From the NCBI GenBank assembly GCA_023254095.1, contig JALNLM010000003.1:89133-153132 (forward strand): DNA of 64,000 nucleotides. The letters run 5' to 3'. Positions 23,971-62,334 of this stretch are shown piece after piece. The notes under the pieces were generated by a model. That model was not told the origin of the DNA. It searched no databases and saw only the letters and a program-made list of their open reading frames with translations. Each line of letters starts with the position of its first letter. Positions within the stretch are counted from its first letter, which is position 1. The translations under genes were made by a program, and so were the position numbers. This stretch comes from Candidatus Geocrenenecus huangii (GTDB lineage Archaea > Thermoproteota > Nitrososphaeria_A > Caldarchaeales > Wolframiiraptoraceae).

Positions 23971-24111
23971 AAAACCAAGCTCCAAGAATCACCAAATTAG
24001 AAGAAACATAAGAAGATAATAATCGGAGAAGCTACTAACATACTCTCTTCTTATACTCTTGATTAGTTTTTAGATGAGATCGGAGAAAAGAGATATAGGT
24101 TTAAGGGTATG

Positions 24112-24206
24112 TGCCGGGGGAGGGATTCGAACCCTCGACTTCGGGGTTGCATCCTCGTTGACAGGATTATGAGCCCCGCACTCTAACCAGGCTGAGTTAC
24201 CCCGGC
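24112..24206 (-). tRNA. tRNA-Met/Ile2 (anticodon CAT) with a ~20-nt intron next to anticodon-loop position 37/38
   Basis: The minus-strand read is GCCGGGG-TA-ACTC...GAGT-G-CGGGG-CTCATA[ATCCTGTCAACGAGGATGCA]A-CCCCG-AAGTC-GAGGGTTCGAATCCCTC-CCCCGGC-A. This gives a cloverleaf with a 7-bp acceptor stem, a GTTCGAATC T-loop and a G1:C72 pair. The CCA end is not encoded. Confidence 0.7.
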
Positions 24207-39334: not shown

Positions 39335-39546
39335 TAGATTATCTTTTGAATAATCAATAGATAAACGTTATATCTCTAGAACCATAGAAATAATACCCAG
39401 AAGAATATAGAAAGAAATATGGTAAAAAATACTTAATAAAATCAACTGAAACTATTTTTCACCAAACGATACAGGCACAGTCTTCATCTGTAGGAGGGTC
39501 ATCATCAAGATCTACCATGTTCAGATATTAAATAAATGCAAATGAG

Positions 39547-39634
39547 CGGGCCCGGAGGGACTTGAACCCTCGACCTCCGGCTTTCTCCTAATGTTCCGAA
39601 GGCCGGCGCCATATCCATTCTAGGCTACGGGCCC
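39547..39634 (-). tRNA. tRNA-Arg (anticodon TCG) with a 13-nt intron at 37/38
   Basis: The minus-strand read is GGGCCCG-TA-GCC..GGC-G-CCGGC-CTTCGG[AACATTAGGAGAA]A-GCCGG-AGGTC-GAGGGTTCAAGTCCCTC-CGGGCCC-G. It has a TTCAAGT T-loop and a 7-bp acceptor stem. Confidence 0.6.
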
Positions 39635-49926: not shown

Positions 49927-50116
49927 GACATTAATCTAAGAATTGTCTTATATCTATTTTCTCCATAACTAACTGGGAGATGCTCTATTATAGCTCCAGC
50001 AATGTAACTTCTCTTAGAGATAACCATCATCTAGGTAATTTCCTGAATGATTCCATAAGAATAAGTTTTAGGGAAAAAATGGTACGATGCCAAGCATGTC
50101 TCAAGCTATTATTAGC

Positions 50117-50413
50117 TCATATTTTTTTCTTCTTATGTATTACTTGTTTCGGGTCTTTTATCAGTAAAGCTATCTCCCATATTATTAATGCAGTTACTAC
50201 TAGGACAAATCCTAGGATAGTTGATTCAAGCGTTATCTCTAAGAGTTCTGCTCCTTCTGTAAAGTATCCTATTAAATTATCTATGAAAATCATCAATGAT
50301 GCTCCCCAAAAGATCAAACTCAGGAACTTCAACATGTATCTATCATCTTCAGCTTTAACATACCATAATGCTGTAGAGATTGTTGCAGAGAATAAAAGTA
50401 TTATTAACCACAT
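50117..50413 (-). CDS. Small membrane protein (2-3 TM), hypothetical
   Basis: 98 aa and strongly hydrophobic, ending in a KKKKI tail. It is preferred over an overlapping plus-strand low-complexity ORF. Confidence 0.35.
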   Translation of the reverse strand: MWLIILLFSATISTALWYVKAEDDRYMLKFLSLIFWGASLMIFIDNLIGYFTEGAELLEITLESTILGFVLVVTALIIWEIALLIKDPKQVIHKKKKI

Positions 50414-50476
50414 CTCTATCAGTAAAGTTTAATAGTAACAATTATTTAACTATTTGGTGTTACCGGAGGAGATAAC

Positions 50477-50842
50477 ATGGCATGCTTTTTAACACCCATG
50501 TTTATAGCTATGGTTACTACGTTTCTTCAGAAGATTTCAATTAAGAAGGCTGAAAAATTGAAGCTATCTATATTGAATACGTTACTTTGGGGTGGTTCCA
50601 TACTTCTAGCGGTAGAACATGTATGGCATGGTGAAGTGGTTCCATGGCCACCTTTCTTAACAGCTATGGCTAACCCAGTAGAGGTGCCAGTCATGCTTCA
50701 TGAAATGATGTTTACCGGAGGATTAATGACGGTGACTATCTTCACGATCTGGGGACTTATACTAGCCATCCCGAACATAATGTCTAAACTTCCAGTAACA
50801 ACTCAAAGACTAAAGGATACAACGCTACATAGAACAGCTTAA
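50477..50842 (+). CDS. Small membrane protein (3 TM), hypothetical
   Basis: 121 aa with 3 hydrophobic helices and a His/Trp-containing loop (EHVWHGEVVPWPP). Confidence 0.35.
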   Translation: MACFLTPMFIAMVTTFLQKISIKKAEKLKLSILNTLLWGGSILLAVEHVWHGEVVPWPPFLTAMANPVEVPVMLHEMMFTGGLMTVTIFTIWGLILAIPNIMSKLPVTTQRLKDTTLHRTA

Positions 50843-50874
50843 CCGAAAATCTAAGATTAGGTTTCCACTCAGAA

Positions 50875-51351
50875 TCATGCCTGTCTAAATGATTTCTTCT
50901 TTACCAGGTCATAGACTTTTCTCGTTATTTCTTCTAGCTTCTCTTTTAATTGTTCTGAGACCTCTTCAGATATCGTGTAGACGTCCGATACCTCTATCCC
51001 GATAATCTGAATCTCTCTCGGCATAGGTATGCCTAGTTCCTTCATGACCTTCAGTGTTTCAGATAGATTCATATAGTGGGGGCTCCATACAGATTGTTTC
51101 CCTACTTCATCTATGTCAACTTCTACTACTTCTCCAACCGGATGCTTAGATGTGACTACACTGTCGACTATTATTGCGAGCTCTCTACCTTCGATGTAGT
51201 CTATTAATGGGAGACCAGACTTATCCATGATCTCAACTTCAAACCCTTCATTCTCTAATACAGGTTTTAATTTTTCTCCTACGAGCAGAGATACTTTATC
51301 ATCTCTAAATAGGTAGTTTCCGATAAAAAGTATGAGGGGCTTACTGTTCAT
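50875..51351 (-). CDS. [NiFe] hydrogenase maturation endopeptidase (HycI/HoxW/HyaD family)
   Basis: 158 aa with N-terminal LILFIGNYLFRDDKVS (Asp Ni-ligand region) and IIVDSVV...HP. It is located directly downstream of the hydrogenase large subunit. Confidence 0.8.
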   Translation of the reverse strand: MNSKPLILFIGNYLFRDDKVSLLVGEKLKPVLENEGFEVEIMDKSGLPLIDYIEGRELAIIVDSVVTSKHPVGEVVEVDIDEVGKQSVWSPHYMNLSETLKVMKELGIPMPREIQIIGIEVSDVYTISEEVSEQLKEKLEEITRKVYDLVKKKSFRQA

Positions 51352-51464
51352 TCGGGATATTTATTCTCTAGGAGACTCTATATACCTTATGGAGTGTGAG
51401 TCCTCAGTTATCTCTAAGATGAAGTGACTGGATTGAGTATGGTCTCGGTATTCCTTATTCACTG

Positions 51465-52958
51465 CTATTTCCCAATTCTTGATACTAGTTCATCTGAGTC
51501 TATGATTTTCAGCAATTCGCCTTTAGAAGAGTAGAGGTGTAACTTAAGCGATATTCTTTCGGATAGGCTGTGTGTCCCACATGCATGACATGGATCGTAG
51601 GCTCTGAAAGCCATCTCCACCATGTTTAATATTCCTTCATCTATCTGCCCCGCCCTAATTATGGATCTCGCGGCCTTATCTACTGAGAGGGCTATCCGCG
51701 CAGCGTTATGTTGTGTTGCCACGAGCAAGTTTGCTTTCTTCAATACTCCGTTCTCATCTGTCTCATAATGATGTATTAAGGTTCCTCTAGGCGCTTCAAC
51801 CACACCTATCCCTACGTCCGGAATAGCTGAGGGCAGATTTCTTACATCCTTGCTTTCTATATCTGGATCATAAGCTAGTTCCCTGAATCTTTCAGCCGCG
51901 TAGACTATTTCTATTACTCTTGCCCAGTGGTTCGCCAGTGTATGATGTACAGGTCTTCCTCCTAGTGTCTCATACATTTCCTCATATGCTTCCTGCGCTT
52001 TCGGTGTAGCCATTCCATCGGCGGCATTTAGCCTCGCTAGAGGCGCTACACTCATAATCCCGCTGTCTTCCCCATCTGTAAATCCCTTCCACCCAATCTT
52101 TCTAAGGTAAGGGAATTTTATATACGTCCATGGTTCTACATGTTCTGCTATATAGTCCAAGTATTGGTGAACGTCGAACTTTGCATATTCTGTCCCTCTA
52201 GGTGAGACAACTCTAATTCTGCCGTCATAGAAGTTTACTCTATTCCTATCGTCTACGAGGCCCATGTAGTATGTTCTATGAGTGTATGCTTCACTCGTTA
52301 TGAGATCGACGTACTCCTTGTTGCTTAAAACTATGTCTTTGAAGACTCTGTAGGTGAATTCCGCGAATTCCACTGCTTCGTCAGAGGTTTTCTTAGCTGT
52401 CTCTATTGCTTCTTCAGACAATGGCTTAGAGATTCCCCCAGGTAGACCAAAGACTGGATGTATTGTTTTTCCACCAATCATCTCCATAAGCTTCCTCAAC
52501 TTCTTCCTCATCTGGATAACCCTCAAACCTACCTCTACTCCAACCTTCTTGATCACCCCTACAACGTTTCTCTCCTCCTTGGAGGCCTTCGGCCCGACTA
52601 TGAAGTCAGGTCCGGCCAGAATGTAGAAATGCAAAGCATGATCTTCCACCATGAATATGTTGTAGAACATTTCTCTAATCTTCTTGGCTGGCTCCGGCGG
52701 ATCGACCTTATACAAGTCATCCAACGCTTTCGTGGAGGCCATATGATGCGCTGTTGGACATACACCACATATTCTAGGCGTTATCTGAGGCATATCTTCT
52801 GCATGCCTACCTACAGCGAACTTTTCGAAGCCTCTAAGCTCCGGTATCTGTAGATATGCTTTAACGCAGTTTCCAGCATCATCCAGCACTATTACTATCT
52901 TACCGTGACCCTCCAATCTTGTGATAGGATTGATCACAACCTCCTTCATGTTTATCAC
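51465..52958 (-). CDS. mvhA: [NiFe] hydrogenase large subunit, Mvh/F420-non-reducing (group 3c-like) type
   Basis: It has the N-terminal RLEGHG...RICGVCPTAHHMA (L1 motif) and the C-terminal DPCHACGTHS (L2 motif), followed by a ~30-aa extension that a maturation protease would remove. Confidence 0.9.
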   Translation of the reverse strand: MINMKEVVINPITRLEGHGKIVIVLDDAGNCVKAYLQIPELRGFEKFAVGRHAEDMPQITPRICGVCPTAHHMASTKALDDLYKVDPPEPAKKIREMFYNIFMVEDHALHFYILAGPDFIVGPKASKEERNVVGVIKKVGVEVGLRVIQMRKKLRKLMEMIGGKTIHPVFGLPGGISKPLSEEAIETAKKTSDEAVEFAEFTYRVFKDIVLSNKEYVDLITSEAYTHRTYYMGLVDDRNRVNFYDGRIRVVSPRGTEYAKFDVHQYLDYIAEHVEPWTYIKFPYLRKIGWKGFTDGEDSGIMSVAPLARLNAADGMATPKAQEAYEEMYETLGGRPVHHTLANHWARVIEIVYAAERFRELAYDPDIESKDVRNLPSAIPDVGIGVVEAPRGTLIHHYETDENGVLKKANLLVATQHNAARIALSVDKAARSIIRAGQIDEGILNMVEMAFRAYDPCHACGTHSLSERISLKLHLYSSKGELLKIIDSDELVSRIGK

Positions 52959-53935
52959 CTCTCTGCTAATATTATCTTTCCTCTAAGCCTTGAAGCTGGT
53001 AAAGAATATCTATAGAATACGCCCATTGGGTCCAGGATCTTCCCAAGTACTTTCTTGATCTCTTCTTCGTCTGCATAGTCTACTATACTCGCAAAATATG
53101 ATATCGCTTTCCCACCGTAATCTATTACTTCGTCTAGCGGGCCAAAGCATCCAGTACACGGCATAGCTGCTTTTATACAGAGTGCACCGCATCCTCCACG
53201 AGTCACTGGTCCAAGACATGTTAACCCCTGTGTGAGAAGACACTTAGATGGGTCTGCCAATACTTCATGTGGCCTCTTAACATCCTTGATTAACACTTTA
53301 TCGGGCTTGGTTTCGTTTAGCGGGCAATCGTAGCATAGGGATTTATCGGATGCTCCTAGTACAGAGCCTCTAGGTGGAAGATTGCCTGAGAGTAGCGTCT
53401 CTATAGCTTTCCACGTAACATCAGGTGTTGGAGGACAGCCGGGTACATAATAATCTACGTCTACTACGAGATCTAGTGGTAGGAGTCGTGGAAGAAGATC
53501 AGGCAACTCCAGTGTTATCTCTTCTTCTACTTTGGTTTTTAGCTGTGGTCGTGTTTTGTCAGGGTTTTCTACTGTTGGTGCTTCATGATAAACATATCTC
53601 AGTATTTCTTCTCTACTATAGAGGTTTGCTAGCCCTGGGACCCCGCCCCATGCTGAGCATGCTCCGTAAGCGATAACCAGTTTGGATTTCCTCCTAAGCA
53701 ATTTTACTACATGTTCATGTTCAGTAAGTCTAACTCCACCATTTATGAAGCTTGCAGTAATCGATCCATCAGGCAAATTTTCTACGTCTTGGATTTTGTA
53801 ATCCATAGCCACTGGCCAGAACACAATATCTACTAGGTTAACGACGTCAAGGATCTTATCGGCGAGGTCTACTACCGCTTCCTCGCATCCTCCACAACTT
53901 GCACACCAGTATAATGCGATCTTGGGTTTCTCCAT
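52955..53935 (-). CDS. mvhG: [NiFe] hydrogenase small subunit, Mvh type
   Basis: It has the N-terminal ALYWCASCGGCEE proximal-cluster motif and further Cys clusters (CPPTPDV, CYDCPLNE, CLGPVTRGGCGALC...CTGC). Confidence 0.85.
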   Translation of the reverse strand: MEKPKIALYWCASCGGCEEAVVDLADKILDVVNLVDIVFWPVAMDYKIQDVENLPDGSITASFINGGVRLTEHEHVVKLLRRKSKLVIAYGACSAWGGVPGLANLYSREEILRYVYHEAPTVENPDKTRPQLKTKVEEEITLELPDLLPRLLPLDLVVDVDYYVPGCPPTPDVTWKAIETLLSGNLPPRGSVLGASDKSLCYDCPLNETKPDKVLIKDVKRPHEVLADPSKCLLTQGLTCLGPVTRGGCGALCIKAAMPCTGCFGPLDEVIDYGGKAISYFASIVDYADEEEIKKVLGKILDPMGVFYRYSLPASRLRGKIILAER

Positions 53936-53937
53936 AT

Positions 53938-54357
53938 CTAGACCGTCTCCTGCAGTTTTAGTGGACCTAGAGACTTAATTTCCTGATACATCTCATTCGC
54001 TACTCTAACGAATTTCTCTGCTTCAGATGCAGAGATCCATTCAAGTCTAAATCTTTCTTTCTCTATCCCGAATCCTTCAAGAACCCTCCTTAGGAGAGTC
54101 ATTCTCCTCAATGCTTTAATATTCCCCTCGATGTAGTGGCAGTCGCCTGGATGGCATCCTGCAACGAGGACTCCGTCGGCACCTCTCCTAAAAGCTTCAA
54201 GAATGAATTGTGGATCGACTCTCCCTGAACACATGACTTTTATTACTAGAAAGTTTGGAGGATACTTCATACGACTTACGCCAGCTAGGTCTAGAGCAGC
54301 ATAAGAGCACCAGTTGCATGCAAAAACAACTATTCTCGGCTCAAGGTCTTGACTCAC
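53938..54357 (-). CDS. mvhD: Methyl-viologen-reducing hydrogenase delta subunit (MvhD)
   Basis: It has the IVVFACNWCSYAALDLAG ... CSGR...GADGVLVAGCHPGDCHY pattern typical of MvhD [2Fe-2S] proteins. Confidence 0.85.
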   Translation of the reverse strand: MSQDLEPRIVVFACNWCSYAALDLAGVSRMKYPPNFLVIKVMCSGRVDPQFILEAFRRGADGVLVAGCHPGDCHYIEGNIKALRRMTLLRRVLEGFGIEKERFRLEWISASEAEKFVRVANEMYQEIKSLGPLKLQETV

Positions 54358-54417
54358 TTAAACCACCTTTATTATTCACATTTTTTAACTTTTTTGCAGT
54401 ATTTAGCGATATCAGAA

Positions 54418-56367
54418 TTACTTATAGAGAGCCGCGAGAACTTGGCTCTTTAATTGAGCATCCTTGAAGCCGAACTGCTGCATCGCACCCGTCGGGCATG
54501 AGGCTACGCATGCCCCGCAACCTTTACATACTGCTGGGTCTACTTCTGCAATTCTCCTATCTTCATAGGTCTTTATTCTTATAGCATTGTATGGACATAT
54601 TCCCACGCATATTGAGCAGGCACTACATCTCTCATCATCTACTACTGCTACCAATGGTTCAACTATTGCCTCTTCTTTTACAAGCAATGTCAAGGCTTTA
54701 GAGGCTGCAGCACTTCCAGAATCTATCGCCTCTACGATGTTCTTCGGTCCAGTGACTGTGCCCGCAAGATATACTCCATCAGTAGCGGCTTCAACGGGTC
54801 TGAGTTTTAAATGAGCTTCTCTAAGGAATCCTTCTGGACCGCATCCTACCTTCACTATTGTTCTAATTCTATCGATATCTTTAGGAGGCTTCATTCCCAC
54901 TGATAGTACTACTAGGTCGGCGGAGATGGATACTTCTTCCTGGATTGTTTCTTCAAAGAATCTTACGTCTATGCTTCCATCAGGGTTGACGAGAACGTTT
55001 GGAGCTTCTCTATATCTTGCAAACCTGATCAGTCTCTCTCCAGCTCTGAGATAGAGTTGTTCATCTCCTCTACTGTATGTTCTTATATCTTTATGAAGGA
55101 TGTATATGTTCGTTTCAGGATATCTCTCCTTGATTACGAGAGCATTCTTTATCGTGGATGAGCAGCACATCCGGGAACAGTATGGATACGCGTTCGGAGT
55201 TATATTAAGCGACCCTACACACATTATGAATACTATGCTCTTCGGCTGTATACCGTTTATCTTCAGTTCACCCTTCGTCGGGCTCTCTTCGTCAAGCATT
55301 CTTTCAAGCTGGAATAATGTTAACACTCTACTGGATACACCATAACCGAACTCTCCAATCAGAGGTTCATATGGTTCATGTCCTGCTGCAAGTATTACTG
55401 CTCCCACGTTTAACTCTATTTCTTCAGGCTTCTCTGCAAGATTTACAGCGTTCCTCGGGCAGACTTTAACGCATTCGAGGCATCTAGTACAGTTTTCATG
55501 GTCTATGACATAAAGTGGTGGGTATGCTCCTAGATACGGTAGGTAGATTGCTTTCCTCTTCGTTAACCCGAACTCATACTCGTTTGATACCTCGACTGGA
55601 CATACTCTAACACATTCACCGCATAGATTACATTTTTCATTAACGTGCCTTGGCTGTCTAACCACTCTTATCTTGAAGTTTCCCACTGACCCGCTAACAT
55701 CTATTATCTCCGTATTTACGTAAATATTGATGTTCGGATTGTCTACGACTTGCTTCAACAATTCACCTACTACATCTTTTCCTTTCAATTCTGTATGTGC
55801 AATTCTTCCAAGCCTAGCGGTATTTCCACCTAATACTGGTCTTCTCTCAATGAGATAAACCTTGAAGCCTTTAAGAGCCAGTTCTCTGGCAGCAGATAAT
55901 CCTGCTACTCCGCCTCCCACGATCAAAACGTTCTTGTTTACCTTGAAAGTTATATCCTTAAGTGGTTCAAGCAATGATGCTTTAGCTACGGCGACTCTTA
56001 TCAATGTATAGGCTTTCCATGTTGCAGCTTCTCTACTCTCTGAGTGAACCCATGAACAATGCTCTCTAATGTTTGCTATTTCTAGCAGGTATGGGTTTAG
56101 TCCGGCTTCGATCAAAACATTTCTAAAAGTATGCTCATGCATAGTTGGAGAGCATGCTGCTACGACAATCCTGTTTAGATTATACTTCTTTACTCCTTCT
56201 TTAATAATTTCTTGACCTGGAGCAGAGCACATAAAGATGTAATCTCTTACCTCTACAACGTGTGGGAGATTCTTAACGTATTCAACTACTTCTTTTATGT
56301 TTACGGAGCCGGCTATGTTTACTCCACAGTGGCAGATGTATACCCCTATTCTAGGCTCCTCATTCAT
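54418..56367 (-). CDS. hdrA: Heterodisulfide reductase subunit A-like flavoprotein (HdrA)
   Basis: 649 aa with the FAD motif VLIVGGGVAGLSAARELA, multiple ferredoxin CxxCxxCxxxCP motifs and the thioredoxin-reductase-like insert. Confidence 0.85.
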   Translation of the reverse strand: MNEEPRIGVYICHCGVNIAGSVNIKEVVEYVKNLPHVVEVRDYIFMCSAPGQEIIKEGVKKYNLNRIVVAACSPTMHEHTFRNVLIEAGLNPYLLEIANIREHCSWVHSESREAATWKAYTLIRVAVAKASLLEPLKDITFKVNKNVLIVGGGVAGLSAARELALKGFKVYLIERRPVLGGNTARLGRIAHTELKGKDVVGELLKQVVDNPNINIYVNTEIIDVSGSVGNFKIRVVRQPRHVNEKCNLCGECVRVCPVEVSNEYEFGLTKRKAIYLPYLGAYPPLYVIDHENCTRCLECVKVCPRNAVNLAEKPEEIELNVGAVILAAGHEPYEPLIGEFGYGVSSRVLTLFQLERMLDEESPTKGELKINGIQPKSIVFIMCVGSLNITPNAYPYCSRMCCSSTIKNALVIKERYPETNIYILHKDIRTYSRGDEQLYLRAGERLIRFARYREAPNVLVNPDGSIDVRFFEETIQEEVSISADLVVLSVGMKPPKDIDRIRTIVKVGCGPEGFLREAHLKLRPVEAATDGVYLAGTVTGPKNIVEAIDSGSAAASKALTLLVKEEAIVEPLVAVVDDERCSACSICVGICPYNAIRIKTYEDRRIAEVDPAVCKGCGACVASCPTGAMQQFGFKDAQLKSQVLAALYK

Positions 56368-57658
56368 GGACTACACCTTCAGCAAGTATAGATGCTTTAA
56401 CCGCTGCCGAGCTAGCCTGTATAACTGAGTCTGGAATATCTTTTGCACCTGCTGCTACGCCAACGACGTAGACTCCGTCTATATCTGCTGCTACAGGCTC
56501 TATAATTGGATTCTTTAAAAGTATGTATCCGTCTTCTCCGATCGGTAAAGATAATGCCTCCGGATAGACAGGTTTAACCCCTACGGCCAGAACAACCATC
56601 TCTACTCTTATAGATTTCTTGACGCCTGTGAATGTATCTTCATACGTTATTATCAAATCTTTAGTCTCGGGATCCTCTTCAATCTTCGCAGGTTTAGCTC
56701 TAATGAATTTCACCCTGAATTCTCTCACGGCTCTATTATAGAATTCTTGATATCCTTTCCCGAATGCTCTGAGATCCATGTAGAATATTGTGCAGTCAAC
56801 TTCTGGTAGATGTTCTTTAGCGAGGATTGCATGCTTAACGGAGGCCATACAGCAGAAAGCTGAACAGTTCGGGTTAACCTTAACATCTCTAGAACATACA
56901 CACTGTATGAAGGCTATACTTTTCGGATGCTTATTATCAGACCTTCTCATAATCTCTCCCCCAGTCGGTCCAGTAGATGATAAGAGTCTTTCGAATTCCA
57001 GCGATGTATATACATTTGGATATTTTCCGTAGCCGTATGTTGGAGCAATACGTGGATCCATTAATTCGTACCCCGTAGCGACGATTATCGAGGCTACGTT
57101 AAGTTCTAGAGTTTCAGGTTTCTGCTCAAAGTTTATCGCCCTGGTTGGGCAGAATCTTTCACATACACGGCATATCCCCTTAGTAAAGTAGAAACAGTGT
57201 TCTCTATCTATGGTTGCTTTCAGAGGTACCGCTTGAGGGAAGGGAAAGTATATTGCCCTCCTATTACTCATCCCTAGATTAAACTCGTCTGGAACTTTTG
57301 ACGGGCACTTGGAGGCACATTCACCACACCCTATACATTTATCTTCATCAACATATCTAGGCTTCTTAAGCACCTTAACATAGAAGTCCCCCGCCTTCCC
57401 TTTAACCTCAACTACCTCCGAATATGTTAAGAGCCTTACCATAGGATGTCTCGCGACAGAGACCATCTTAGGAGTAAGAATACATGAAGAGCAATCAAGC
57501 GTTGGAAACGTTTTATCTAGTTGAGCCATTCTACCACCTATACTCGGACTCTTCTCGATGAGGTACACTTCTACTCCTTGATCTCCTAGATCTAAAGCAG
57601 CTTGTATACCAGCAATACCTCCACCGATAACCAAGACAGATTTAGGCATGAATACCAC
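56360..57658 (-). CDS. Second, shorter HdrA-like FAD/Fe-S flavoprotein
   Basis: 432 aa with FAD motif VLVIGGGIAGIQAALDLG and ferredoxin motifs CIGCGECASKCP and CRVCERFCP. It overlaps hdrA by 8 nt. Confidence 0.7.
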   Translation of the reverse strand: MVFMPKSVLVIGGGIAGIQAALDLGDQGVEVYLIEKSPSIGGRMAQLDKTFPTLDCSSCILTPKMVSVARHPMVRLLTYSEVVEVKGKAGDFYVKVLKKPRYVDEDKCIGCGECASKCPSKVPDEFNLGMSNRRAIYFPFPQAVPLKATIDREHCFYFTKGICRVCERFCPTRAINFEQKPETLELNVASIIVATGYELMDPRIAPTYGYGKYPNVYTSLEFERLLSSTGPTGGEIMRRSDNKHPKSIAFIQCVCSRDVKVNPNCSAFCCMASVKHAILAKEHLPEVDCTIFYMDLRAFGKGYQEFYNRAVREFRVKFIRAKPAKIEEDPETKDLIITYEDTFTGVKKSIRVEMVVLAVGVKPVYPEALSLPIGEDGYILLKNPIIEPVAADIDGVYVVGVAAGAKDIPDSVIQASSAAVKASILAEGVVHE

Positions 57659-58793
57659 CGCCCTTAGATTGAAAATGTTTCTTCAAGTCTGAAAAATATA
57701 CTGCGAATGGTCTATAGGCTAAGTGAGCCCACTTAGCAAAAGGCACTTCAAGCAATAAGAATGGGGCCACTATCATTAAGTGTATCGAGTATGTTACGTA
57801 TGTTGCAAGTGGTAGTCCGATGAATCTAAAGATTCCTACGAGGATTCCTGTAACAGTTACTATGAGAAGCATAGTTATGAACATCCAGTCTGTTAGATGG
57901 GAGTAGCTCCACATAGGTTGAGATCTCCTTATCCTTCCACGGATAGATATAGAAGCTCCGTAGAGCAAGGCTAATGTGGAGAATATGCCGATGATGCTTA
58001 GAGGATTAACTATGAGGAATGGCTCGTTGGTCTGGGTAAATCTTAGGAGTGGCACAAACAATATGAAGGCTGCAGCATACCCGTAAACCATGATTAGATG
58101 GTTTATCCAGTTGCTCACCCTACATAGCTTAAACTTCATCTGTGTAAAGAAGTGTACTGGAACGGTCTTGACGAAGTCGGCGACCAAGAACTTTAGGGGT
58201 ACCCTGACTCTTTCCCCATACTCGTCTCTCATAACGAACCTATACATCCGATACAGGTTTGTTATGAGGAGCACGGCAAGTATGAAGAAGACTGCTAAAC
58301 CAGCTGTATCAACTATGTGTATCGGTGCAAAAGTTTCTAGCTGAACTCTATCTAACACAACGGGTCCATGTAGAAAGTATATTAGCAAGCCTACTATTGC
58401 TGCGACGATCATTATTGCCATTATCTCTACTTTCTTAGAGAGGTAGAGTAGTCTCGATATGCCAGTCCAATCATATTTTGTTGTAAGATATCTTCTAAGA
58501 GCCATCATAAAGCTTCCAGGATCAGCATCTCTAGGACAATAATCACTACATTCACCACAATAATAGCACAGCCATGGATCAATAGAAGAAACTATCTTAT
58601 CTTCTATACCCATGATGGCGTAACGTATAAGCTTCCTAGGATACGACACATTATCTTGAGTTAATGGGCAGATAGCTGTACAATTACCACAATTAAAACA
58701 TCTAATGAATTTTCCTGCTCCAAGTTCGATGAGCCTTGCTGATAACTCAGGAGCTACCTTCGTAGGTTTCTCATAAACAGTAATGACCTCCAT
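57642..58793 (-). CDS. Membrane subunit: N-terminal HdrC-like 2x[4Fe-4S] domain fused to an HdrE/NarI/DsrM-like multi-His (cytochrome-b-like) integral membrane domain
   Basis: It has N-terminal CFNCGNCTAICP and CYYCGECSDYCP clusters. About 6 TM helices follow, with conserved His in helices (HIVDTAG, HLIMVYGY, HLMIVAPF), which suggests heme b and a quinone-facing function. Confidence 0.5.
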   Translation of the reverse strand: MEVITVYEKPTKVAPELSARLIELGAGKFIRCFNCGNCTAICPLTQDNVSYPRKLIRYAIMGIEDKIVSSIDPWLCYYCGECSDYCPRDADPGSFMMALRRYLTTKYDWTGISRLLYLSKKVEIMAIMIVAAIVGLLIYFLHGPVVLDRVQLETFAPIHIVDTAGLAVFFILAVLLITNLYRMYRFVMRDEYGERVRVPLKFLVADFVKTVPVHFFTQMKFKLCRVSNWINHLIMVYGYAAAFILFVPLLRFTQTNEPFLIVNPLSIIGIFSTLALLYGASISIRGRIRRSQPMWSYSHLTDWMFITMLLIVTVTGILVGIFRFIGLPLATYVTYSIHLMIVAPFLLLEVPFAKWAHLAYRPFAVYFSDLKKHFQSKGGGIHA

Positions 58794-58954
58794 ACCTCGA
58801 AAGTATTTACCAGTATAAGGAAGATATAAGATTTTTTATAACATGAATAAATATGTGCGGTACCATATTTGTCTATACTATATATACTCTGGTCGCGTAG
58901 TTGACAATGCTTAAAATCATGATATATCTTAACTTGACTGGAGAGGAATATTAA

Positions 58955-59998
58955 TTAGCATATTCTAGGAACTATCTCGCCTACTGGTGGTTCAAGTATT
59001 CTATAGCCTCCGATACTTGTCCTCACTACAACTAAACTGATCTCTTCTTTCTTCTCTCTAACTTCTCCGATTATCTCAGCATTCCTATAGCCTATTCTAT
59101 GCATCGTTTCAAGCATATCTTCTGCATACTCTTCTTCTACTCCTAGAACCGCTACTCCTTCAGAAGCTAAGGTTAACGGGTCTAATCCAAGCATTTGGCA
59201 GTAACTCATTACAGGTTCTCTTACCGGTATCTTTTCCTCATCTATGATTATGGTTGTGTTCGACAATGAAGCCCAATTATTCAAAGTCATTGCCAGACCT
59301 CCTCTAGTAGGGTCGCTGGCAGCATGAATATGCTTGCCATACTTTTTTATGAGGGGTATCATTAAATCCGTTAGAGGTTTAACGTCACTTCTTAATTCAT
59401 GTTCTTCAAGCATGAGACCTTTCTGGGCAGCGTATATTGCCGCTCCATGTTCAGCTACTGGCCCTGAGACGATGATTTTGTCTCCAGGCCTTAGATTCTT
59501 ATCTACTATCAAGTATTCCGATATACCGATTCCGACCGTTGTGATTATTATCTTGTCTATCTCTCCATAAGGCATAACCTTAAAGTCTCCGCCGATCAGC
59601 TTTACTCTCAGGTTAGCAAATACGTCAAACATAGATTCTAATATCTTTTCCAATGTTTCTCTCTCTAAACCCTCTTCAACTACTATGGAATCTAATGCAG
59701 CTACCGGGTTTCCACCAAGCATCAGTACATCATTTATCGTTCCAGAAGCAGCAAGTTTCCCAATATCTCCACCGGGGAAAAATATTGGGTTAACAGTGTA
59801 GGAGTCGATAGTTAAGACCATGTATTTGTCTTCGCTTAAAGGGATGGCCGCTGCATCATCTGGGAAATCTAATCCTAGACCACCTTCAACGAGCTTCATC
59901 CAGGAGGGTAGTCTACTGAAGACTATCTCTTCAAGCAGCTGATTCATTTCTCTTCCGCCAGACCCATGGGCTAGAGTAATCTTCTCCACATCGACCAC
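58955..59998 (-). CDS. hypE: Hydrogenase maturation factor HypE
   Basis: It has an AIR-synthase-related fold with the N-terminal LAHGSGG and a C-terminal PRIC Cys. Confidence 0.85.
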   Translation of the reverse strand: MVDVEKITLAHGSGGREMNQLLEEIVFSRLPSWMKLVEGGLGLDFPDDAAAIPLSEDKYMVLTIDSYTVNPIFFPGGDIGKLAASGTINDVLMLGGNPVAALDSIVVEEGLERETLEKILESMFDVFANLRVKLIGGDFKVMPYGEIDKIIITTVGIGISEYLIVDKNLRPGDKIIVSGPVAEHGAAIYAAQKGLMLEEHELRSDVKPLTDLMIPLIKKYGKHIHAASDPTRGGLAMTLNNWASLSNTTIIIDEEKIPVREPVMSYCQMLGLDPLTLASEGVAVLGVEEEYAEDMLETMHRIGYRNAEIIGEVREKKEEISLVVVRTSIGGYRILEPPVGEIVPRIC

Positions 59999-60292
59999 CT
60001 AGTATTTCTTGCTTAACCACTTATTTACCACCTTATCTATTTCTTCAAGCTCTTCAGTTGACATCTCTCCCTCTTCAACGAGTCTTTCAACAGCTTCTCG
60101 AATATACCTGAAGCTCTCTAGGAATTCTTCTTCACTCAGTTTAGAGATTATAAAGCCTGCGTGGACAACTACATAATCTCCTGGCGAGAGGTCATCTATA
60201 GCTGACAATACCTCTTTAACTACTCCACCAAAATCTACTCTAACAAACTCTTCTGACACTTCTAGCACTTTACCGTAGACGCCCCAGCACAT
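59999..60292 (-). CDS. hypC: Hydrogenase assembly chaperone HypC/HupF
   Basis: It begins MCWGVYGKVLEV, the essential N-terminal Cys2 of HypC, and has an OB fold with a C-terminal helical extension. It abuts the hypE start. Confidence 0.7.
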   Translation of the reverse strand: MCWGVYGKVLEVSEEFVRVDFGGVVKEVLSAIDDLSPGDYVVVHAGFIISKLSEEEFLESFRYIREAVERLVEEGEMSTEELEEIDKVVNKWLSKKY

Positions 60293-60455
60293 TCTACAAT
60301 AAGTATTGTAGGATAGAATTTAAAAACATAAAGCTACAACCTACACTATCGTACCTTTTATTAATTGAGCATCATTCTCCAGCGATGATGATACGCTATT
60401 TTGGCTATTTCTAAATCTCGGATTAAATGTGAAATAGATAAACTACCACAGAGGT

Positions 60456-60938
60456 CTATCTCGTTAAGGCTTGTTCAGGTCTTGCGAACAGCTCGAGATA
60501 CTGCTTAACTCTCGCTTCGAATATATCGGGTCTAAACTTCATCTCCATCGCTGCGATAGTGTTCAAAGGATCTTCGGGGTTGGGATTGTTTAACAGGTTT
60601 CTAAGAGTCTCTATCAACGTTATCACGTGGAGAGAGGGGGACCAATCTTCTTTCAGTATTGATTCGCATACTCTAGCTGGAACTTCATCTGTAAAGTTAG
60701 GATGCCATATACGTGTCCACCATACGACGTCTGGTGGAGTATATGGGAAAGTGCGAGGGATAAGTATCTCTACTTTAAAGTATCCACCTTCATATAGTCC
60801 TTCACCGATAATCACTCCTCTATAATGTGTTAAATCACCATCAACAACATCGAAAAGGGGTTCATGCTCGTGTACCAGCTTATACTCGAGGGCCAACCTC
60901 TTATACCAGAGGAGCTCTGGAAGCTCAGCATCCATCAT
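60456..60938 (-). CDS. Ubiquitin-conjugating enzyme E2-like protein (UBC fold)
   Basis: The alignment to UbcH5 is clear by eye. It has YEGGYFKVEILIPRTFPYTPPDVVWWTRIWHPNF (HPN motif at ~79-81), the catalytic Cys in RVCESILKEDWSPSL (Cys ~91, with WSP at position +9), and C-terminal NNPNPEDPLN matching CDPNPDDPL. Confidence 0.85.
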   Translation of the reverse strand: MMDAELPELLWYKRLALEYKLVHEHEPLFDVVDGDLTHYRGVIIGEGLYEGGYFKVEILIPRTFPYTPPDVVWWTRIWHPNFTDEVPARVCESILKEDWSPSLHVITLIETLRNLLNNPNPEDPLNTIAAMEMKFRPDIFEARVKQYLELFARPEQALTR

Positions 60939-61130
60939 TAGGTCCCTCCATCTAAAATCTAGATCTTAACAATCCTGGATTAATACTTATACCCTATTCG
61001 GTAACCATCTTTCCATGTTTTACCAATATGTGTTTTCTATGAGTACTCTCGAATTTCATACGTCACTTTAATACATCAGTGAATCGTTCTTACGAGGTTA
61101 TTCTAGATAGACGTTCTGTCCTTCAATATC

Positions 61131-61379
61131 TTACTCTACATATACTCCTCCTACAGTCCTCGTTATCAATACGAGCTTGTCTCCGTCTTCCACACCTATA
61201 TCCTGAAGTGTCTCAGTATCTTTTAGTGCCCTACCTCTGAATGTAAGTCTCGTAGTATCAGGGGGGAGCTTCTTCATAGCGCATACTTTTGCTCTTATAG
61301 CTCCAATAGTTGTTGTAGGTGAAACTTCTAATTCTATCGGGCTTCCACCACCCACTGCAGGAACGACCTTAATCTTCAT
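61131..61379 (-). CDS. Ubiquitin homolog (beta-grasp) ending in a Gly-Gly motif followed by a 4-residue extension (precursor form)
   Basis: The 82-aa sequence IELEVSPTTTIGAIRAKVCAMKKLPPDTTRLTFRGRALKDTETLQDIGVEDGDKLVLITRTVGG-VYVE aligns along its whole length with ubiquitin ([63 protein letters not shown]). Confidence 0.8.
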   Translation of the reverse strand: MKIKVVPAVGGGSPIELEVSPTTTIGAIRAKVCAMKKLPPDTTRLTFRGRALKDTETLQDIGVEDGDKLVLITRTVGGVYVE

Positions 61380-61414
61380 TAAACCTTCTCTCCTAGAATT
61401 TTCTGTTTATCCAC

Positions 61415-61424
61415 TATATATAAA
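61415..61424 (-). promoter_or_regulatory. Putative TATA box (TTTATATATA) for the ubiquitin-E2 transcription unit
   Basis: An A/T octamer lies about 36-45 nt upstream of the ubiquitin-like start codon on the minus strand, in a 320-bp divergent intergenic region. Confidence 0.3.
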
Positions 61425-61662
61425 CATTTGTATCTCGAGTATTCTACGAGAATTCCTAGAAAATGCTTATAGAAATACTCGGCGAACCTACAATCAAGAT
61501 ATATTAGACAAGATTGCTCGGGTTTCTAACCTTGAATCTTCTTACTACTCATCAACACTTAACTTACAGGGATGTATCCTTGTAGAAGAGTTGTGCATAG
61601 GAGATTGTATTTGCTAAAAATACATATTCCTTCTCTGTTAAAGAAGCTAATTAGATAACAAT

Positions 61663-61670
61663 TATATTTT
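61663..61670 (+). promoter_or_regulatory. Putative TATA box (TTATATTT) for the JAMM gene
   Basis: It lies about 30-36 nt upstream of the TTG start at 61699, which is consistent with a short-leader or leaderless archaeal transcript. Confidence 0.3.
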
Positions 61671-61698
61671 AGAGCATTTCCTAGAGTGTAGAGAAGAG

Positions 61699-62334
61699 TT
61701 GAGAGTGAGGATCTATCCTCTAGCATTAGGCAAGGCTGTAAAGTATACTTTAATGGATCTCGAAAGAGAAGTGGCAGGACTATTAATTGGACGATATGAA
61801 AAGAAACAAGATGTGTTAGAGATATGGGATGCTATATCAGGAAACCAGAAAGCTTCTTCAGCATTTGTATATCTAGATGAAGAAGTTATGGCCGCTACTT
61901 TCGAGTGGCTTTCGAGAGAGAGACCTGGACTATATATTGTAGGATGGTATCATTCACATCCAGGCTTCGACCTCTTCTTATCGACAATAGATATACAAAC
62001 GCAGAAGAGATATCAGATGATGTTCCCCAAAGCAGTCGCCATGGTCATCGATCCACTCGAATACGCTAAGACTAGAAAACTTGTAGATCTAAAGTTTAAG
62101 GTATTCCACATAGATAAGCAGGGAAGGGTAATACCCTTGAGGGCCTCGATAGGTATACAGAGAAAGAAGGTAATAGAAAGTACTATAAGGGGAATGGATA
62201 CAGTAGAACTATTCTTTATTCAACCTCCTGAACTGCAGGAACCCGAAAACTACAAGTTTACAGGTTTCTCAGGTTTAGGGGAAAGAATTAAGAAGCTAAA
62301 AGATAAATTCATGCCTTTCTATCAAGAGAAGTAA
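61699..62334 (+). CDS. JAMM/MPN+ metalloprotease (Rpn11/CSN5-like deubiquitinase/ubiquitin-precursor processing enzyme)
   Basis: It has a complete JAMM motif: upstream Glu (LEREVAG) and H85-S-H87-x7-S95-x2-D98 within GWYHSHPGFDLFLSTID. It is transcribed divergently from the ubiquitin/E2 genes. Confidence 0.85.
   Translation: MRVRIYPLALGKAVKYTLMDLEREVAGLLIGRYEKKQDVLEIWDAISGNQKASSAFVYLDEEVMAATFEWLSRERPGLYIVGWYHSHPGFDLFLSTIDIQTQKRYQMMFPKAVAMVIDPLEYAKTRKLVDLKFKVFHIDKQGRVIPLRASIGIQRKKVIESTIRGMDTVELFFIQPPELQEPENYKFTGFSGLGERIKKLKDKFMPFYQEK

Follow-up and report, generated by a model that had tools for sequence, protein, structure and literature searches.

How does a genome come to encode a ubiquitin, a conjugating enzyme (E2) and a JAMM metalloprotease side by side when no activating enzyme (E1) and no RING protein lie around them? 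The question is raised by a 64-kb stretch of Candidatus (Ca.) Geocrenenecus huangii DNA (contig JALNLM010000003.1 of GCA_023254095.1, referred to throughout as the window), near one end of which three such genes are found; an earlier note made from the sequence alone had proposed a reduced or split ubiquitylation system, or one that borrows a SAMP/MoeB-type E1 encoded elsewhere. It is highly probable that the window carries the ubiquitin (Ub)/E2/Rpn11 half of a complete E1-E2-RING system of the Caldiarchaeum type, whose E1 and RING genes reside at a second locus. The organism belongs to the family Wolframiiraptoraceae of the Caldarchaeales ('Aigarchaeota'), the group from which the archaeal ubiquitin system first became known; it shares its order with Ca. 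Caldiarchaeum subterraneum, and the 'crenarchaeal-type genome' of the earlier note was an imprecise description. Geocrenenecus has been assigned to this family within the phylum Nitrososphaerota (PMC9246946), and the full set of ubiquitin components occurs in all six genome bins of an Aigarchaeota comparison, which only lists them (PMC6053391).

Profile and structure comparisons agree on the identities of the three products (coordinates and motifs are collected in Table 1). In a Pfam scan the modifier scored as ubiquitin (E = 2.7e-15, 56.3 bits) and as ThiS only at E = 0.11 and 13.5 bits, under the cutoff of 22.5, while the E2 matched UQ_con (2.5e-28) and the metalloprotease JAB (1.1e-17). Compared with solved structures, the window Ub reaches E values of about 1e-39 with C. 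subterraneum ubiquitin (CsUb; 2MQJ, 6FJ7, 6FNN, 5ZEW), the JAMM protein 2.9e-62 and 3.5e-55 with CsRpn11 (6FJU and 6FJV, respectively; the alignment begins at residue 1) and the E2 up to 1e-23 with eukaryotic UBE2K, UBE2N and UBE2D, its HPN motif and active-site Cys lining up with UBE2K. The JAMM signature was read from the sequence as E...HSHPGFDLFLSTID, i.e. E...HSHx7Sx2D. Ub and E2 are 85% and 70% identical to their counterparts on a Caldiarchaeum-type contig (L009), the E2 being 65–70% identical to Ca. Caldiarchaeum/Caldarchaeum E2s, and the JAMM protein is about 60% identical to a Caldiarchaeum-type protein (E = 3e-62). The earlier description of the trio was therefore accurate in its exact coordinates, in the Gly-Gly of a true ubiquitin as opposed to a ThiS/MoaD-only protein, in the UBC fold of the E2 with its HPN, catalytic Cys and WSP motifs, and in the signature and divergent orientation of the JAMM gene. 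The genes it named as flanks, hypC/hypE next to E2 and L21e, RpoF (Rpb4), DUF655 and KsgA beyond JAMM, were likewise confirmed by Pfam.

Neither E1 nor RING is encoded in the 64-kb window. tblastn searches found no counterpart there, whether the queries were E1 and RING of the Caldiarchaeum type or the E1 of Wolframiiraptor and its two RINGs; a hidden Markov model built from 14 E1s matched the window only at the Ub gene (E = 1.5e-4), through the ubiquitin-like (UBL) domain at the C terminus of E1; and the RING cross-brace pattern is found in none of the 510 window stop-to-stop segments of at least 40 residues. In the E1 and RING scans both positive controls on the E1 locus scored strongly. The claim that these genes are missing within 25 kb on either side holds for the window, which stops 1.7 kb past the JAMM gene and does not show 25 kb on that side; in longer contigs of the same organism no ThiF or RING genes occur within 10 kb on either side.

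The missing components are encoded elsewhere in the same assemblies. An E1-based scan of the GTDB representative genomes recovered 80 loci, among them orphan E1s without upstream Ub, E2 or JAMM genes in three species (L034, L038, which is Ca. G. arthurdayi, and L040); the representative of the window species itself was not returned, and the same-genome evidence comes from exact-protein look-ups. The three orphan E1s cluster with P0069, and the same cluster holds P0186 and P0187, whose NCBI accessions share a numeric series with the Ub, E2 and HypE of the window. The look-ups place the E1s P0186/P0187 in GCA_038844655.1, GCA_038880875.1, GCA_023268175.1 and GCA_038829265.1, all four of which carry the window locus. 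In GCA_038844655.1 the E1 lies on contig 9 and the window locus on contig 4, the window being 99.99% identical to JAWBRD010000004.1 of this assembly in reverse complement. NCBI 'Nitrososphaerota' metagenome-assembled genomes (MAGs) carry the exact window E2 protein on 24 or more contigs, and the closest named relatives are Ca. G. dongiae (Ub 94%, E2 94%) and G. arthurdayi; the latter is placed in the same 90% cluster, and its E2 is 97% identical.

The second locus begins with an Mbh/Nuo-like complex, a Vps4-like AAA gene (-), hypD (+), E1 (395 residues) and RING (86 residues; RING86), and continues with hyp130, hyp288 (-), a membrane-anchored RING (TM-RING, 243 residues; RING243), ProRS, PhoU_div and EndA; it is precisely the downstream module missing after the window E2. 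Its E1 combines ThiF (2e-60) with a C-terminal ubiquitin-like domain (1.1e-06; both Pfam) and keeps every invariant column of the family, namely the GVGAxGCE ATP loop, SNLSRQ, the CLEC and CFxCG zinc pairs and the AECTLRRR loop. It is 79–84% identical to the other E1s of the split clade and 70–75% to those of the nearest unsplit relatives. A search beyond the window thus turned up a ThiF-UBL E1 together with RING86 and RING243, and among the options of the earlier note it is the split system that stands; a reduced system is contradicted by the cognate E1 and RING in the same assemblies, and a borrowed SAMP/MoeB enzyme by an E1 of the Caldiarchaeum type with all invariant motifs.

The relatives display the two modules in one piece. 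A Caldiarchaeum-like contig reads Ub-E2-E1 (ThiF, 397 residues)-RING (81 residues). In Ca. Wolframiiraptor sinensis, L10e-KsgA-DUF655-RpoF-L21e-JAMM and the divergent Ub-E2 pair are followed by E1-RING77-hyp116-(hyp279)-TM-RING217-ProRS-PhoU_div-EndA. Both the left flank from L10e to E2 and the right module of E1, RING, coiled-coil, hypothetical, TM-RING, ProRS, PhoU_div and EndA genes are identical in order between the window lineage and the other Wolframiiraptoraceae compared (Wolframiiraptor sinensis, gerlachensis and allenii, and G. dongiae), but there the modules adjoin, and the E2-E1 spacer measures 54–63 bp in the nearest unsplit relatives. Gene order in the window follows the Wolframiiraptor layout from KsgA through E2 (59–83% amino-acid identity); synteny stops right after E2, and no downstream gene of the standard layout is found in the window. 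Across the Caldarchaeales and Asgard loci L017–L084 an E2 with HPN...Cys...W.P stands directly upstream of E1 in 61 of 68, which is every locus that holds the full E2 region, and the HPN and Cys residues that the earlier note had staked its E2 assignment on are thus conserved in orthologs. The hyp genes have a standard order of their own: of 72 more distant hypD loci from metagenomes, about 64 have hypD, hypC and hypE in an unbroken row.

In the split clade hypD is instead followed by E1. The Vps4-hypD-E1 junction occurs in L034 and L040, where RING follows, in L038, where E1 is present and the RING region was not recovered, and in seven metagenome contigs (L107, L109, L110, L112–L114 and L117; HypD at least 75% identical); the reciprocal E2/hypC-hypE junction is found in G. 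arthurdayi as well as in the window. From the hypD-E1 of the split clade, the hypD-hypC-hypE of its relatives and the E2/hypC junction of G. arthurdayi it follows that a single cut in an intergenic spacer opened each of two ancestral operons and that the pieces were exchanged when they were joined again, as E2/hypC-hypE and hypD/E1-RING. hypC-hypE, formerly the distal part of the hyp operon, thereby came to stand directly downstream of E2. The rearrangement is older than the divergence of at least four species.

The distance between the halves can be gauged from the order of accessions. On the 465-kb contig 1 of GCA_038874635.1 (L192) Vps4, hypD (+) and E1 (+) are located at 325–329 kb, in an ascending order that matches MEM3397763 and MEM3397764; the E2 of this series, MEM3397697, is 66 genes lower, and by accession order it is well inside the same contig as E1. 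Only the MEM3397xxx series is tied to a contig, via L192, the E2 on that contig having been returned only among collapsed 'similar places'; the MEM2016xxx series agrees. A second assembly reads HypE 555 < HypC 556 < E2 557 < Ub 558 < L21e 560 ... Vps4 626 < HypD 627 < E1 628. Since the window, which reaches 60 kb from E2 in the direction of hypE, has no Nuo-like/Vps4/hypD/E1 block, we infer from this absence and the accession order that E1 lies about 55–60 kb from E2 on the JAMM side and in the opposite orientation. A different arrangement, with E1 and E2 in the same orientation across a 135-gene gap on JAWCGD010000004.1, was dropped: the MEM1584xxx series carries a 347-residue HypE variant that this contig does not.

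A single inversion of about 60 kb is the probable specific mechanism. Its end points would fall in the E2/E1 spacer and the hypD/hypC spacer, the inverted segment would comprise hypD...Vps4...(about 66 genes)...L21e-JAMM-Ub-E2, and the resulting order would be hypE<-hypC<-E2<-Ub / JAMM->L21e->...<-Vps4 / hypD->E1->RING. Several observations count against this reconstruction. No single stretch of DNA with both halves has been read, distance and orientation resting on accession order and on absence from the window; the MEM1584xxx and MEM2068xxx series show different orders, which we attribute to separate contigs; the junctions contain no repeat or mobile element, only chance matches of 7–13 nt, also when compared with ancestral-type spacers; the closest unsplit hypD loci (L115/L116) have no Vps4 upstream of hypD, and the ancestral order is not directly observed; finally, every genome is a MAG. 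The junction spacers have grown, to 163 bp from the 54–63 bp of ancestral-type loci and to 243 bp from about 102 bp there, and AT-rich TATA-like boxes in the new upstream spacer of each separated half are only suggestive of independent promoters. The position of Vps4 next to hypD/E1 looks like a by-product of the inversion. As a separate observation, the hypD-E1 gap of G. arthurdayi-type contigs measures about 0.75–1.6 kb compared with 243 bp in the genome of the window, sequence having been gained there.

Both halves have been maintained since. All components are under strong purifying selection, with ratios of nonsynonymous to synonymous substitution rates (dN/dS) of 0.01–0.14 computed against G. 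arthurdayi-type sequences at a near-saturated synonymous divergence (dS about 1–1.5), and the catalytic motifs are kept; the JAMM signature is intact in every relative whose JAMM gene was recovered. The tail after the Gly-Gly of Ub varies: the window has VYVE, G. arthurdayi SDRAC, G. dongiae NI, several other relatives 8 residues and Wolframiiraptor, whose Ub ends at the Gly-Gly, none at all. Such variability is typical of a propeptide. The retention of JAMM where Ub has no propeptide agrees with a role in deconjugation.

The ATP-dependent cascade from E1 via E2 (and RING) to lysine, together with the processing of pro-Ub by JAMM, has been demonstrated only for the C. subterraneum proteins, where Rpn11 removes a propeptide of nine residues, E1 does not activate pro-Ub that still has it, and Rpn11 serves in deconjugation as well (PMC5654768, PMC6043591). 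By analogy, we infer biochemical activity for the window system as well, and the JAMM protein is predicted to serve both in propeptide removal and in deconjugation of Ub. It would cut pro-Ub after the Gly-Gly and release VYVE; the cognate E1 from the second locus would adenylate Ub and then form a thioester with it; Ub would be handed on to the E2 Cys, and RING86 and/or the membrane-anchored RING243 would stimulate its transfer to substrate lysines, a conjugation that JAMM could also reverse. One biochemical result weighs against the opening step: bulky residues right after the Gly-Gly block CsRpn11 (Fuchs et al., PMC6043591), and the tail of the window Ub starts with Val-Tyr, the cleavage of VYVE by the window JAMM being a prediction by analogy.

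Table 1. Position, strand and selection of the features at the two loci. Plain coordinates refer to the window, those with a prefix to the contig named; TM, transmembrane.
Feature	Position	Strand	dN/dS	Remarks
Pro-ubiquitin, 82 residues	61131..61379	-	0.05	beta-grasp modifier; ...LVLITRTVGG, then 4-residue propeptide VYVE
UBC-fold E2 conjugating enzyme, 160 residues	60456..60938	-	0.011	HPN (WHPN), catalytic Cys in RVCESIL, WSP; 97% amino-acid identity and dS about 1.5 in the dN/dS comparison
Rpn11-like JAMM metalloprotease, 211 residues, TTG start	61699..62334	+	0.07	divergent from Ub-E2
Divergent Ub/JAMM intergenic region	61380..61698			presumed promoters of both genes; TATA-like 'tttatatata' ~40 nt upstream of the Ub ATG
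Ub-E2 spacer, 192 bp, non-coding	60939..61130			GGAGGG ~10 nt before the E2 ATG
E2/hypC junction spacer, 163 bp	60293..60455			one rearrangement breakpoint; synteny with Wolframiiraptor and G. dongiae ends just 3' of E2
hypC	59999-60292	-		Pfam HupF_HypC 5.7e-19
hypE	58955-59998	-		Pfam AIRS/AIRS_C
L21e			0.055	neighbouring reference
E1			0.06-0.09	
Small RING (RING86), 86 residues	L097:11264-11524		0.06-0.13	zf-RING_2 1.3e-11
hyp130, coiled-coil	L097:11637-12029	+	0.05-0.08	no significant Pfam match
hyp288	L097:12019-12885	-	0.05-0.08	no significant Pfam match
TM-RING (RING243), 243 residues	L097:13214-13945	+	0.10-0.14	N-terminal hydrophobic region; zf-RING_2 1e-10
Vps4/CdvC-like ATPase (MIT + AAA + Vps4_C)	L097:7280-8392	-		directly upstream of hypD/E1 in all split-clade loci
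Enlarged hypD-E1 gaps	L110:8177-9744, L109:8177-9101, L113:8177-8927			G. arthurdayi-type contigs

Loss of the dedicated E1 and RING, with a SAMP/Urm1-type MoeB/UbaA enzyme supplied from elsewhere or no E3 at all, would account for their absence from the 64-kb window, and a Urm1/ThiS-like gene does lie about 9.5 kb away in some strains; such a reduction is nevertheless very unlikely given a cognate E1 in the same assemblies that has all family-invariant residues and the C-terminal UBL domain and is accompanied by two RING proteins, all of them under purifying selection. We give as little credence to the notion that the split is an artefact of assembly or binning, whereby the operon would in reality be contiguous or the E1 locus would derive from a co-occurring relative. 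Every sequence is a MAG contig, and in the assembly of the window one half is on a different contig from the other, but the E2/hypC junction is crossed by more than 20 independent contigs, which come from many samples, and again in a second species, and the hypD/E1 junction by more than 30 contigs, in three further species and in JGI metagenomes; both halves are assigned to one 465-kb contig, and no contig of the split clade has E2 next to E1.

That Ub, E2 and JAMM could be the decaying remnant of a disrupted operon, non-functional after their separation from E1 and RING, might be surmised from the unusual 192-bp spacer between Ub and E2. Against this stand intact reading frames, preserved catalytic motifs and an E2 that, at a dN/dS of 0.011, is constrained more tightly than its neighbour L21e at 0.055, which leaves decay an extremely slim prospect. 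There is next to no chance that the genes form an anti-phage Ubl conjugation system of the Bil, CBASS Cap2/Cap3 or 6A-MBL type in place of housekeeping ubiquitin. Such systems likewise combine E1, E2 and JAB domains, and the JAMM protein shows a weak NCBIfam match to the 6A-MBL cap2_3 model (E = 0.014); PADLOC, however, has no match for Ub, E2 or RING, its JAB matches are generic only (35 bits compared with 213 bits to CsRpn11), the E1 matches Cap2 fusions through the Rossmann part only, and the locus is vertically conserved beside ribosomal and housekeeping genes across the order.

The split Caldiarchaeum-type system can be set beside those already described. In C. subterraneum the genes are Csub_C1473 (Rpn11), C1474 (Ub), C1475 (E2), C1476 (E1) and srfp (RING) (PMC3082918, PMC5654768, PMC6043591). 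The window lineage has the same five components, a divergent JAMM, a pro-Ub with a short post-Gly-Gly peptide, an E1 composed of ThiF and a C-terminal UBL that is 55% identical to a Caldiarchaeum E1, and a membrane-anchored second RING nearby that matches the 'second E3' of Fuchs et al. (PMC6043591). It differs in that the genes, which form one cluster in C. subterraneum, are spread over two loci some 60 kb from each other, in that Ub-E2 is followed by hypC-hypE and E1-RING preceded by hypD, and in a propeptide of four residues (VYVE) compared with nine. Furthermore, Ub and E2 are separated by 192 bp, whereas they overlap by 26 nt in the Caldiarchaeum-like L009; G. arthurdayi has an overlap of about 11 nt (L189). 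The lack of a single operon-like cluster of all components concerns gene order, not content or mechanism.

Asgard clusters (Jord-, Frey- and Promethearchaeia) hold the same set of Ub-E2-E1 plus RING and JAMM, but identity amounts to only about 40% for E1, 46–48% for E2 and 31–41% for Ub, RING and JAMM are at different positions, and Vps4-like genes are nearby; such matches lie 3–4 kb downstream of E1 in L076 and L079–L083. With SAMP/Urm1-UbaA systems the window lineage shares a beta-grasp modifier with a C-terminal Gly-Gly, an activating enzyme of the ThiF family and a JAMM deconjugase; those systems are devoid of E2 and RING and have modifiers of the ThiS/MoaD/Urm1 kind, whereas the window has an E2 and a modifier that scores as ubiquitin. 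SAMPs are not processed by CsRpn11 (PMC6043591).

A number of further genes surround the two loci. In nearly every Caldarchaeales locus E1-RING is trailed by a trio consisting of a coiled-coil protein of about 116–130 residues, an opposite-strand gene of about 280 codons and a membrane-anchored RING of about 217–243 residues; the three moved along with E1 in the split, are under purifying selection and may belong to the archaeal Ub system as uncharacterised accessory proteins. The Urm1/ThiS-like gene (88 residues, L002:370-636, also in L194 and L195; Pfam Urm1 3.9e-07), situated beyond E2 on the JAMM side, adjoins genes for CGI-121, a thioredoxin-like protein and a cysteine desulfurase-like aminotransferase, which suggests a separate SAMP/Urm1-type sulfur-carrier module alongside the ubiquitin system; a homologue occupies the syntenic position in Wolframiiraptor. 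The Urm1/ThiS-like gene is part of a strain-variable region beyond an Rce1-like gene, past the right end of the window (L001:1-5000 versus L002:1-5000), which contains photolyase/UvdE/2-thiouracil desulfurase-like genes in some MAGs and RNase H/aminotransferase/thioredoxin/CGI-121/Urm1-like genes in others; many assemblies end 4–8 kb from E2 on the JAMM side, probably due to strain polymorphism.

Downstream of hypC-hypE, a minus-strand cluster at about 50000-58800 of the window encodes an Fe-S protein, two HdrA-like FAD/Fe-S oxidoreductases, FlpD/MvhD, the small and large subunits of a [NiFe] hydrogenase and a HycI-type maturation protease; it resembles a soluble hydrogenase module of the Mvh/Hdr type and is now codirectional with Ub-E2. 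Elsewhere in the window, two tRNA genes at 24111-24206 and 39546-39634 (both -) are unusually long (96 and 89 nt), which hints at introns; tRNA-Met(CAT) is one of them, the other was given no anticodon by ARAGORN, and both reach the Rfam tRNA gathering score. It is conceivable but improbable that Ub-E2-hypC-hypE (with the hydrogenase genes) and hypD-E1-RING are co-transcribed, which would couple expression of the ubiquitylation cascade to [NiFe]-hydrogenase maturation in this clade, and that a functional link, such as ubiquitylation of Hyp or hydrogenase proteins, and not neutral drift has retained the layout over at least four species.

The window locus is a complete and fairly ordinary split-operon member of the known Caldiarchaeum-type system, and its unusual layout is a lineage-specific rearrangement. 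We did not find the split layout described in the literature, and the Wolframiiraptoraceae paper makes no mention of ubiquitin. The earlier note's view that such a system would inform on how eukaryotic ubiquitin signalling arose is not borne out, the organism being a close relative of a species whose system has already been reconstituted (PMC5654768, PMC6043591); sharing its components, sequences and predicted mechanism with that system, the locus has little bearing on this origin. It does furnish a worked example of a genome that has an E1 although a window of it shows none nearby, and the inversion would provide a cleanly datable marker for a Geocrenenecus subclade. More generally, the archaeal Ub cascade tolerates having Ub, E2 and the deubiquitylating enzyme apart from E1 and E3: the split layout has been kept under selection in at least four species, with dN/dS values down to 0.01, so that function does not depend on an unbroken operon.

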